Shown here: piece by piece, positions 30,507 to 32,716 of the stretch | Position numbering within the stretch: position 1 is the first letter of the stretch | Layout: every line of letters begins with the position of its first letter | Origin: a virus | Length of the DNA: 64,000 nucleotides | IMG/VR virus record: IMGVR_UViG_3300045988_122383 | Coordinates: 24,896 to 88,895 of that record | Strand: one strand, 5' to 3' | Made by a program: the position numbers and the translations under genes | The notes under the pieces: model-generated | Databases searched by the model: none | Seen by the model: the letters and a program-made list of their open reading frames with translations, nothing else | Told to the model about the DNA's origin: nothing

Positions 30507-31241
30507 TTATTTGCGAGCATTTTTCATCTGATCTAATATGGCTTTAGCTTCTTGCTGTCGCTCTTCTTGCTCCATATGATAATCCAATGTTTCTGCACTA
30601 GATTCATACGCAATAGCAACGCCTTTGGCTTGTTCGCTAAGTTTCTTTGCTCCTTCTCGAACCTCTTCCAAACCTTCCTGAGCAGCATTTGAACTATTGT
30701 ATTGATCTAAATTTTTCTGCAATTCTGCAATCTGCTGATCTGCCTCCATCTGAAGAACCACAGTATCTTTTTCGCTTTTTAGCTTAATGAGCTGATCATA
30801 CGCTTGGTTTTTAATTTCTTCTTGTTTATCTTTTGTGGATTGCAACTCTGGGATTTTCTTTTCGTACACTGATTTCTGTGCCTTTAGCGTGGCTAATTTT
30901 TGAGCATAATACATTGCTTTTTTATCATCATGATTATCAATGTACTGGTTGATCATTGCCTCGGTTTTAGAAATTTCTTCTTTTGTTTCTTTGAGATCAT
31001 CTTCCATTGTTGCCAATCTACCAGCTACCGTTGTGTATGTACCCATTGTTTTCTTATAAAAGTCCTGTTTCTCTTTAATTGCAGTATTATATCTGGCTCT
31101 TGCTCCCTCTGGAGTCATTGCATTTTCTTTGATCTTTTCTGTAACTGTTCCAGATGCCACATTTTTAATCTGCTTTCCGTTTTTAGTAAATTGTAAATAT
31201 GCGATAATTGCTACAATTACACAAATAATAATAATTGCCAT
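30507..31241 (-). CDS. Membrane-anchored coiled-coil protein, possibly of the PspA/IM30 family.
   Basis: N-terminal transmembrane segment MAIIIICVIVAIIAYL followed by long heptad-rich Q/E/K helices. It lies directly downstream of the flotillin gene. Confidence 0.45.
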   Translation of the reverse strand: MAIIIICVIVAIIAYLQFTKNGKQIKNVASGTVTEKIKENAMTPEGARARYNTAIKEKQDFYKKTMGTYTTVAGRLATMEDDLKETKEEISKTEAMINQYIDNHDDKKAMYYAQKLATLKAQKSVYEKKIPELQSTKDKQEEIKNQAYDQLIKLKSEKDTVVLQMEADQQIAELQKNLDQYNSSNAAQEGLEEVREGAKKLSEQAKGVAIAYESSAETLDYHMEQEERQQEAKAILDQMKNARK

Positions 31242-31255
31242 AATAATTTCTCCTA

Positions 31256-32716
31256 TTAGAACTCACGGTAATCTGCTGGCTCTGGTGTTCCAAGATTTTC
31301 ATTATCTGTAAACTCTACTTCTTTATCTTCAGAAACAAAATCTTTCAACATCTTTGCAAGATCAACACCTGTAGATCCTTTAACACCATCTGATACCTGA
31401 TTCACAACATTCATAATATCTTTTGTTAATTTTGTTGTATTGCCTTCTCCATACATAGTGATACTTCCTACGTTTCCTAATGGCGCAGCTGCATTTTTAA
31501 CTGCTTCTGGGAACATCTGGCACATCATTTCGACGATAGAAGCTTTACCCATCTGCTTCATAGCTTCGGCTTTCTTTTCGATCGCTTCTGCTTCAGCAAT
31601 ACCTTTTGCTTTAATCGCCTCAGCTTCTGCTACACCTTTCGCACGGATACCTTCAGCTTCCTGTTCCATAGCATATTTTGTAGATTCAGCTTCTTTTTCT
31701 TTAGCATATTTATTAGCTTCTGACTCTTTCTGTCTCTTATATAAATCTGCATCTGCTTTCTGCTGAGAGGCATATCTTTCAGCCTCTGCCTGTTTCTTGA
31801 TCTGTGCATCTAATGTCTGCTCTGTTACCTCAACGTCTTTACGTTTCAGTTCAATTTCTTTTTCCTGACGCATAATATTAGCATCCGCAGTTACAATTTC
31901 AATTTCTTTACGTGATTTTTCTTCCTGAATCTTGTATGCTGCATCTGCCTCAGCCTTCTTTGCTTTTGAAATCTTCTCAAGTTCAGATTTTTTAATTTCC
32001 AGATTGTTATTCTTTTCTGCGATCGCTGTTTCTGACTCAACCCTTGCATCATTCGCTTCTTTTTCAGCCATTGCTTTTGCTTTTTCAATATCTCTTTCGC
32101 TTTCAGCTCTGGAAATTGCAGCCTTCTTCTGAATTTTAACAACATTATCTACACCAAGATTTTCAATAACATCATTATCATCCATAAAATTCTGCACATT
32201 AAAACTGATGATATCTAATCCCATTGCAGCAAGGTCTGGCTTCGCATTTTCTGTAACAAGCTGTGCAAATTTCTGACGATCAGAAACCATTTCTTCGAGG
32301 CTCATCTTTCCAACGATCTCTCGCATATTACCTTCAAGGACTTCTCTTGCGACCTGTCCAATATCGCCTACTGGCTTATTTAAGAAGTTTTCTGCTGCAA
32401 GTTTTAATCTTTCTGGATTACTGCTAACCTTTACATTGACCGCTGCATCTACATTGATATTGATATAATCTGCTGTAGGCACAGAACTTGATGTCTTAAC
32501 ATCAATTGGAATTAACTCAAGATTAAGATGATCTGCTTTTTCAAAGAATGGGATTTTTAACCCTGCCTTACCAATTAATGTCTTAGGTGTCTTTCTAAGT
32601 CCAGAAATAATATAAGCTTTATCTGGACTTGCTTTGACATAACCGCTACCGATAATAGCTCCTACGCCACCTACCGCAATAACCACTGGTACCACTGTTC
32701 CAATTACTTCAATCAT
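31256..32716 (-). CDS. Flotillin-like SPFH/band-7 protein (YqiK/FloT-like).
   Basis: N-terminal transmembrane segment, an SPFH-domain region, then a long EA-rich coiled coil (AEAEAIKAKGIAEAEAIEKKAEA...). The ORF is 486 aa. Confidence 0.7.
   Translation of the reverse strand: MIEVIGTVVPVVIAVGGVGAIIGSGYVKASPDKAYIISGLRKTPKTLIGKAGLKIPFFEKADHLNLELIPIDVKTSSSVPTADYININVDAAVNVKVSSNPERLKLAAENFLNKPVGDIGQVAREVLEGNMREIVGKMSLEEMVSDRQKFAQLVTENAKPDLAAMGLDIISFNVQNFMDDNDVIENLGVDNVVKIQKKAAISRAESERDIEKAKAMAEKEANDARVESETAIAEKNNNLEIKKSELEKISKAKKAEADAAYKIQEEKSRKEIEIVTADANIMRQEKEIELKRKDVEVTEQTLDAQIKKQAEAERYASQQKADADLYKRQKESEANKYAKEKEAESTKYAMEQEAEGIRAKGVAEAEAIKAKGIAEAEAIEKKAEAMKQMGKASIVEMMCQMFPEAVKNAAAPLGNVGSITMYGEGNTTKLTKDIMNVVNQVSDGVKGSTGVDLAKMLKDFVSEDKEVEFTDNENLGTPEPADYREF

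Follow-up and report, generated by a model that had tools for sequence, protein, structure and literature searches.

A flotillin gene and the gene of a PspA/IM30-like protein form, as judged from their sequence context, one exchangeable accessory cassette in a 64,000-nucleotide stretch of viral DNA (hereafter the window; positions 24,896 to 88,895 of the IMG/VR virus record IMGVR_UViG_3300045988_122383). Both genes are located on the minus strand, at 31256..32716 for the flotillin of 486 amino acids (aa) and at 30507..31241 for the PspA-like protein of 244 aa. The carrier of the cassette is a large (~140-170 kb) gut phage whose hosts are probably Erysipelotrichaceae. By analogy with cellular relatives, we lean somewhat towards the view that both proteins stabilise or reseal the host membrane during infection.

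The 486-aa protein is a FloT-like SPFH protein with an N-terminal membrane anchor, an SPFH domain, an EA-rich coiled coil, and an acidic, phage-specific C-terminal tail. The Pfam model Band_7 (PF01145) matched residues 50-207 with an expect value (E) of 7.8e-24 and 85.1 bits (cutoff 23.6), and the Flot domain (PF15975) matched residues 355-427 with 27.7 bits (cutoff 27). Residues 29-455 matched solved human flotillin-1/2 (E 5e-54). These results bear out the first-pass annotation of the window, which had read a transmembrane (TM) segment, an SPFH domain, and an EA-repeat coiled coil from the letters alone and had named PF01145 as the model to search. The alignment to the NCBIfam FloT model NF058507 covered model positions 54-476 of 477, but its 298.5 bits stayed below the equivalog cutoff of 700 bits. 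Thus, the protein is a member of the flotillin family and not a FloT equivalog. Its N-terminal hydrophobic segment (residues 4-22; 19-residue Kyte-Doolittle average, KD19, of 2.48) is followed by lysines, and according to the positive-inside rule the SPFH domain would reside in the cytoplasm. By analogy, the protein would serve as an oligomeric scaffold of membrane microdomains.

The flotillin gene is intact in most of 31 flotillin-type contigs, with apparent disruptions in two, and the N-terminal segment is conserved in the relatives except for one homopolymer frameshift in contig L023. This frameshift stems from an additional A within a homopolymer stretch close to the N-terminus (~5590-5600). 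We considered the shorter L023 product as an anchor-less form of flotillin and rejected this idea, as the single extra A is probably an assembly artefact. In L039, a gap occurs between residues 233 and 265 (6234-6318). The disruptions in the two contigs may be assembly errors or real decay.

Single-sequence scans of the 244-aa protein with Pfam, NCBIfam, and PADLOC yielded nothing usable, and its identity therefore rests on family-level profiles. The protein matches phrog_33389 (E 9e-22). An exhaustive hidden Markov model (HMM) search of 1.84 billion representatives retrieved 319 of them at E<=1e-3. The resulting family is sharply delimited; its full-length members are nearly all ~240-250 aa long, and it resides mostly on large phage-like contigs. 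The Pfam model PF04012 was matched at E<=1e-3 by 46 of 91 full-length members (best 6.6e-13), and the L105 family member alone passes its gathering score, with 35.7 bits. No other Pfam family was matched by more than two of the 91 members; TelA-like and other coiled-coil families were rejected as candidates because none recurs among them. When the 91-sequence profile was compared with the PDB, the top four matches were Vipp1/PspA chains (E 3.4-7.8e-7, aligned to Vipp1 residues 28-187), and the next match, tropomyosin, was about 1000-fold worse. A profile of 18 sequences retrieved the same four chains at ~1e-4 over Vipp1 residues 6-186. The AlphaFold2 model of the window protein (mean predicted local distance difference test score, pLDDT, of 76) is all-helical and comprises a TM helix (~2-18), a linker helix (20-41) of low model confidence, a confident hairpin (44-102/106-181), and a C-terminal helix (186-243). 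Its best TM-scores, 0.5-0.65, were obtained with Vipp1/PspA chains. We conclude that, at the level of the family and on the strength of these profiles, the 244-aa protein is a divergent, membrane-anchored homologue of PspA/IM30/Vipp1 (ESCRT-III superfamily). Thus, the earlier suggestion of a PspA/ESCRT-III-like protein held for the family and not for the single sequence, and the TM segment and long helices proposed with it were both recovered.

The anchor sets this family apart from its cellular relatives. The N-terminal TM segment of the window protein has a KD19 of 2.67 (residues 1-19), an N-terminal segment averaging >2.5 on the same 19-residue scale is present in all family members except a TerD fusion described below, and positive charges follow the TM segment. 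The linker helix at residues 20-41 aligns to helix alpha0 of Vipp1, and this stretch (about residues 20-41) has a low hydrophobic moment and is not amphipathic. Since a TM segment is present and the alpha0-aligned stretch is not amphipathic, the family appears to have kept the PspA core and traded peripheral binding for a true anchor. By analogy, the protein would polymerise on the inner face of the membrane.

The two genes are separated by a spacer of only 14 nucleotides (nt; 31242..31255, minus strand) that carries an AGGAG ribosome-binding site before the PspA-like start codon. Upstream of flotillin, a 65-nt intergenic region with an AAAGGAG ribosome-binding site (32717..32781, minus strand) marks the left boundary of the exchangeable cassette. 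Inspected by eye, this region contains a promoter-like ATGACA, 17 nt, GATAAA arrangement with an upstream TG; the promoter scan did not flag this arrangement on the minus strand. The 65-nt region is near-identical among flotillin-type loci. It recurs, together with the ribosome-binding site, in contig L012, which carries an ATPase-type cassette; the common sequence extends through ATG ATT and the sequences diverge thereafter, placing the left cassette junction exactly after these two codons. The L012 DNA is 92.8% identical to the window up to 32711 and 93.6% from 30392 onward. The window interval from ~32711 to ~30456 is replaced in L012, and within it only the PspA-like gene aligns, at 63.6%. 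Flotillin and ATPase cassettes thus share the same upstream intergenic region, ribosome-binding site, and start codon. The 14-nt spacer and the joint exchange of the pair against another cassette between ~93% identical flanks agree with the two-gene module proposed in the first-pass annotation.

We surveyed 80 IMG/VR loci, taken from a set of 196 relatives, and observed that the partner of the PspA-like gene varies. Flotillin lies directly upstream in 31 loci, whose PspA-like proteins are 95-100% identical to that of the window. An ATPase, a vWA protein, and TerD occupy this place in 8 loci (72-73% identity), an ATPase and three TerD proteins in 39 (40-42%), and TerD only in a single one (42%), and one further locus, L033, has no partner upstream of its PspA-like gene (97%). 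Loci from metagenomes gave the same picture of a constant PspA-like gene and a varying partner. What stays constant at the locus is the PspA-like gene, which is kept in every relative examined. In the sister phages, the slot between PM0253/NadE and the PspA-like gene is filled by a Ca-type P-type ATPase (best NCBIfam model PMCA-type, 461-493 bits), a vWA-TerF-like/copine-like protein, and TerD. More distant phages carry the ATPase with three TerD genes, or with TerD and a TerD::PspA-like fusion, and in each case the PspA-like gene follows immediately. In the 64-kb window, tblastn detected neither a TerD nor a vWA nor an ATPase gene, and none of 32 flotillin-type contigs was among the best 80 of 140 ATPase-bearing contigs. 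Because the contig sets do not overlap and the window lacks TerD, vWA, and ATPase genes, the flotillin and ATPase cassettes act as alternatives.

In L033 (an IMG/VR contig of 140,987 bp), the stop codon of the PM0253 gene is followed directly by the ribosome-binding site and start codon of the PspA-like gene (6980-7001), and the AGGAG motif of the spacer is retained; the locus represents either a precise deletion or an empty site. The first-pass annotation had counted dispensability of both genes against its reading; flotillin proved to be replaceable and is absent from L033, and the PspA-like gene was missing from none of the relatives examined. The flotillin-linked PspA-like protein P0003 is a chimera, of which residues 1-100 are 95-98% identical to the window protein and residues 101-244 are 97.5-98.4% identical to the TerD-linked P0004. 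This pattern indicates a crossover inside the PspA-like gene and means that the C-terminal 144 residues occur with either partner. In P0023 (L015 8001-9080; 359 aa), a TerD domain is fused to the C-terminal ~170 residues of a PspA-like protein, without the TM anchor. This TerD::PspA-like fusion, carried by three of the contigs read, suggests physical coupling of TerD and the PspA-like protein. A separate observation concerns the ATPase gene of L104 (585-4258), which is split into parts of 621 aa and 258 aa (Cation_ATPase_C) by a 220-aa open reading frame (ORF) without Pfam match, which may be an intervening mobile element or an intron-like insertion.

The sequences closest to the window flotillin are phage copies with 94-99% identity, followed by a few unnamed metagenomic sequences with 81-86%. 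Among named sequences, the chromosomal flotillins of Longibaculum muris and Coprobacillus cateniformis come closest, with ~71% identity over residues 24-461; the difference is confined to the anchor and the acidic 25-residue tail. Other phage flotillins are far more distant, with 27-53% identity. Given the ~71% identity to flotillins of Erysipelotrichaceae, while other phage flotillins are much more distant, the gene was probably captured fairly recently from an Erysipelotrichaceae-like host. We rejected a joint capture with the neighbouring radical SAM gene of the host, as the radical-SAM-like ORF found in relatives of the phage is unrelated to the host gene. As anticipated in the first-pass annotation, phage flotillins are rare: a tblastn match was obtained in only 10 of 50,697 phage records, and no PHROG family matched the protein.

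The PspA-like family also occurs in a third context, in which an ABC permease, an ABC ATPase, and an unknown protein of ~180 aa precede the PspA-like protein, which is followed by a ~520-aa fusion of NMT1 (substrate-binding) and OmpA/MotB domains. This arrangement was found in L001 (Bacillus phage G gp243-gp249), L003, L105 (3227-8318), and L106. The L105 cluster is headed by a 288-aa Band_7 protein, a non-flotillin whose SPFH domain is unrelated to that of the window flotillin, and the PspA-like member of L105 is a distant one (30% identical). L105 is thus an independent co-occurrence of an SPFH protein with a PspA-like protein. Phage G gp242, encoded at the position of the L105 Band_7 protein, was considered as a further SPFH protein and rejected, as it gave only weak P-loop matches.

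In the window, the pair is preceded by four genes of NAD+ metabolism on the same strand, encoding a nicotinamidase-like (PncA-like) protein (36222-36818), an Adps/PRPP-synthase-like protein (35371-36207), a Namat/NAMPT-like protein (33905-35374), and NadE (33117-33887). Of these, the Adps-like and Namat-like proteins together are consistent with the NARP1 pathway described in the literature. A scan of the minus strand revealed no terminator-like site between the NAD+ genes and the pair, and given the common strand, read-through or co-transcription is possible in the window. The first-pass annotation had gone further and tied the pair to an NAD+ operon. The comparison of loci shows that such a link is not obligatory: in 13 of the 31 flotillin-type loci the four NAD+ genes are replaced (window 33117-36818 versus L023 4143-5105) by one ORF of 320 aa that weakly matches radical SAM (E 4.7e-4), and PM0253, flotillin, and the PspA-like gene are unchanged. 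Conversely, sister phages with NAD+ genes carry the Ca-ATPase/vWA/TerD module in place of flotillin. The NAD+ region itself behaves as an accessory-gene hotspot. The best terminator-like site of the scanned region is a strong, GC-rich palindromic hairpin of 14 bp at 37337-37368, just upstream of the 155-aa ORF in front of the NAD+ genes, and may delimit the transcription unit on its upstream side.

The window is coded on the minus strand throughout and has a GC content of ~33-35%. Its source is a large phage that encodes a DNA polymerase of its own, a RecJ-like exonuclease, a primase, a DnaB-like helicase, and exonuclease V. A megablast search of INPHARED with the region returned no close relatives. 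Gut metagenomes and IMG/VR contain many near-identical contigs of up to about 215 kb; among the IMG/VR contigs of the flotillin type, most of the long ones measure 140-170 kb. In the window and its close relatives, the gene order is PncA-like, Adps-like, Namat-like, NadE, PM0253, flotillin, PspA-like, tRNA-like element, and a convergent HTH_26 gene. The PM0253-family ORF (32782..33114, minus strand; 110 aa, phrog_20678) forms the left flank in both cassette types, and the HTH_26 (Cro/C1-type) gene (29979..30197, plus strand) is the conserved right flank of both.

Directly downstream of the PspA-like gene lies the tRNA-like element (30238..30376, minus strand), which scores 43.8 bits with the Rfam tRNA model (43.8-46.4 bits across copies). 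Its acceptor, D, and T arms are intact, and the anticodon arm contains an AU-rich insertion of ~68-76 nt. Copies of the same form, nearly identical to one another, occur in L004 (10866-11003), L018 (10308-10445), and L012 (8803-8944). ARAGORN misses the element by default; its intron mode parses a non-canonical 32/33 intron with the anticodon AUA, and by eye CAU is also possible. The distant relative L007 has four normal tRNAs at this place. A hairpin with a trailing T-run lies where the convergent units meet (30206..30243; folding free energy, dG, -11.9 kcal/mol; weak z-score of -1.5); not called by the consensus scan, it is a possible bidirectional terminator closing the unit. Two genes downstream of the pair, a 94-aa ORF (29137..29421, minus strand; phrog_2316) with a signal peptide and the lipobox-like motif LGSMTGC looks like a phage lipoprotein, judging by these motifs. 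Phage lipoproteins are a class often tied to superinfection exclusion. A 106-aa ORF (26708-27028, minus strand) has an N-terminal hydrophobic segment and a C-terminal HPD motif (KKSHPDNGG...) that by eye resembles a J-domain. In L007 (12474-13751) and L010 (13550-14458), IS605 OrfB/TnpB (Cas12f-like) genes are found a few kb from the PspA-like cassette.

The closest known counterpart of the pair is the pspA-ydjGHI (samGHI) module of Bacillus subtilis, whose SPFH protein YdjI/SamI recruits PspA, an ESCRT-III homologue, to the membrane, PspA localisation being dependent on YdjI/SamI (PMC8581546; bioRxiv 10.64898/2026.02.06.704340). Both loci combine an SPFH gene with an adjacent PspA/IM30 gene in the same direction, Bacillota-type biology, and a role in membrane stress, predicted in the case of the phage; in the window the two genes lie 14 nt apart on one strand, and 31 viral loci preserve this samGHI-type adjacency. 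However, YdjI is cytosolic, whereas the phage SPFH protein is a 486-aa membrane-anchored flotillin of the FloT type. The phage locus lacks the YdjG (zinc-ribbon) and YdjH (NfeD-like) partners and is surrounded instead by the PM0253-family ORF, NAD+ genes, and an HTH gene. Moreover, the phage PspA homologue is itself anchored by a TM helix, the SPFH gene comes before the PspA-like gene, and the pair is phage-encoded and exchangeable with a TerD cassette. In several bacterial phyla, Band_7/Flot genes are neighbours of pspA (Popp et al., 2022, PMC9239133). The recurrent linkage of PspA with SPFH/flotillin proteins is common to these neighbourhoods and the phage locus, but the former are chromosomal, encode canonical soluble PspA, and often include NfeD, whereas the phage family is a separate TM-anchored clade of ~245 aa.

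Compared with FloT/YuaG-type proteins and human flotillin-1/2, the phage flotillin has the same full-length architecture of anchor, SPFH domain, and EA-rich flotillin domain. It differs from FloT/YuaG in its score below the equivalog level, the lack of an adjacent NfeD-like gene, and its ~25 acidic, phage-specific C-terminal residues. The PspA-like family resembles PspA, IM30, Vipp1, and LiaH in a profile alignment over nearly the whole PspA domain and in the helical-hairpin core. In contrast to these proteins, its sequence is very divergent, a TM helix would replace the function of the amphipathic helix alpha0, and Psp/Lia regulators are absent. Among phages, a recent study describes a terD/pspA-like operon and a Ca2+-translocating P-type ATPase in Jug and other huge gut phages as well as Bacteroides jumbo phages (Sci Adv, 2026, PMC12880540). 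The pspA-like gene directly follows terD in these phages, and Ca-type ATPases occur in gut phages of which some infect Bacillota, matching our sister cassettes; in the passages covered here, the ATPase and the terD/pspA-like genes are treated as separate units. The term flotillin has no occurrence in the text (PMC12880540), whereas the lineage of the window carries flotillin where the ATPase, vWA, and TerD genes sit.

How the cassette may act can be outlined from these relatives. After infection, both proteins would become anchored in the cytoplasmic membrane of the host, and most of their mass would face the cytoplasm. Flotillin would oligomerise into a membrane-attached scaffold or microdomain, and the TM-anchored PspA-like protein would polymerise on the inner face and thereby stabilise or reseal the stressed membrane, so that proton-motive force and ion gradients would be preserved until programmed lysis. 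The TM helix would confer constitutive membrane association and stand in for alpha0 and the recruiting partners of cellular PspA. Candidate stresses are pore-forming abortive-infection effectors of the host, bacteriocins, injection damage, and premature holin leakage. We base this membrane-guard reading on the documented roles of PspA/Vipp1 and flotillins, the YdjI/SamI dependence in B. subtilis (PMC8581546), and the bacterial pspA/Band_7 neighbourhoods (PMC9239133). The alternative TerD/vWA/Ca2+-pump cassette might serve the same end via ion sensing and extrusion; as it combines a Ca2+ pump with a Ca2+-binding TerD and a copine-like vWA protein, ion leakage may be the problem that is managed.

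A broader and rather unlikely extension of this reading is a modular membrane guard in which a TM-anchored ESCRT-III/PspA-like polymer works with an interchangeable sensor or scaffold and helps the phage to survive membrane-permeabilising abortive-infection effectors or competitors. Three alternatives would fill the place of the sensor or scaffold: a flotillin, a different SPFH protein accompanied by an ABC transporter, and a Ca2+-binding TerD together with a copine-like vWA protein and a Ca2+ pump. TerD would then be a Ca2+-responsive partner of the repair polymer, a prokaryotic-virus analogue of the Ca2+-triggered ESCRT-III repair in eukaryotes.

Several observations weigh against a joint role of the two proteins in membrane protection. 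Taken alone, the window's PspA-like protein reached 15.4 bits with PF04012 (E 0.015; model positions 29-217 of 220), compared to a gathering score of 33.9; the search with this model, proposed in the first-pass annotation, thus stayed below threshold for the window protein, and about half of the full-length family members matched at E<=1e-3. PADLOC returned no matches for either protein or five neighbouring ORFs. The host flotillin gene has no adjacent pspA gene, and the phage flotillins of L002, csAssE-Sib, and KIT04 are without a PspA-like neighbour. Furthermore, L033 shows that the PspA-like gene can be retained without flotillin, and as the region is a variable accessory hotspot, the adjacency could partly reflect insertion-site preference. 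The lone PspA-like gene of L033 and the flotillins lacking a PspA-like neighbour are also what one would expect if a host flotillin had been dropped into a recombination hotspot upstream of the PspA-like gene, with each protein acting alone or flotillin being near-neutral. The close relation to host-type chromosomal flotillins and the high mosaicism of the locus, where NAD+ genes alternate with the radical-SAM-like ORF and flotillin with ATPase/vWA/TerD, point in the same direction. We nevertheless consider such uncoupled insertion improbable. An unrelated SPFH protein co-occurs independently with a distant family member in L105, and flotillin has remained intact in most of the 31 contigs and relies on the upstream signals and start codon that also serve the alternative cassette. 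In addition, experiments in B. subtilis have established the coupling of SPFH proteins with PspA (PMC8581546), and bacterial gene neighbourhoods show it repeatedly (PMC9239133).

The main rival is exclusion of superinfecting phages or competitors, in which a sub-membrane layer of flotillin and PspA-like protein, or the Ter cassette, would block DNA injection by secondary phages or pore-forming bacteriocins. We regard it as possible, if on the unlikely side; it gains from the allelic relation of the flotillin cassette to the TerD/vWA-TerF/ATPase cassette and from the lipoprotein-like ORF two genes downstream (29137..29421), a class typical of exclusion functions. Plasmid-borne ter operons confer phage inhibition and resistance to pore-forming colicins. 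Jumbo-phage Ter modules have moreover been proposed to act against superinfecting phages via sub-membrane structures (Iyer et al., 2021, PMC7824862). On the other hand, proteins of the PspA family are documented as membrane stabilisers and not as entry blockers. We know of no exclusion phenotype for flotillin or PspA. Mechanistically, exclusion overlaps with membrane protection and differs only in the threat addressed, and the context data are compatible with both. Uncoupled insertion is a lesser rival than exclusion, and so is a role in lysis timing, in which the pair would buffer the membrane against early holin accumulation or collapse of the proton-motive force and thus delay lysis for a larger burst. 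PspA counters proton leakage, and phage secretin is among the membrane insults that induce it. Both phage proteins are predicted to lie on the cytoplasmic side of the membrane, where holins act. Yet no holin or endolysin gene is adjacent to the pair among the ORFs examined, and the surroundings of the pair are those of an accessory region, with NAD+ genes and small ORFs of unknown function, rather than those of a lysis module. Control of lysis timing is therefore highly improbable in our view.

The coupling of SPFH proteins with PspA is already known from bacteria, and both phage flotillins and a terD/pspA-like pair of phages have received mention in annotations or as side remarks. In the literature searched, we found no paper describing a phage flotillin/PspA-like pair; one flotillin-rich phage paper deals with prophage integration into the host floA gene. 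Nor did this literature contain the delimited TM-anchored PspA-like family, whose members are located for the most part on large phage-like contigs, the pairing of this family with a flotillin of host origin, or the allelic exchange between flotillin and Ca-ATPase/vWA/TerD under the same upstream signals.

If the membrane-protection reading is true, phages would not only perforate membranes at lysis but also import host-type scaffolds and an ESCRT-III-like protein that keep the membrane of the infected cell intact. The natural allelic series of flotillin, Ca-ATPase/vWA/TerD, and no partner, combined with one conserved PspA-like gene in near-isogenic flanks, provides a ready comparative experiment. 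The location of the cassette beside NARP1-type NAD+ reconstitution genes in many genomes singles out the region as a hotspot of accessory and possibly counter-defence genes that merits mining. The TerD::PspA-like fusion, together with the constant adjacency of TerD, leads to a testable hypothesis that offers a candidate partner for the poorly understood TerD proteins. Should the modular reading hold as well, it would hint at how the long-known Ter phenotypes, resistance to phage and to pore-forming colicins, come about.

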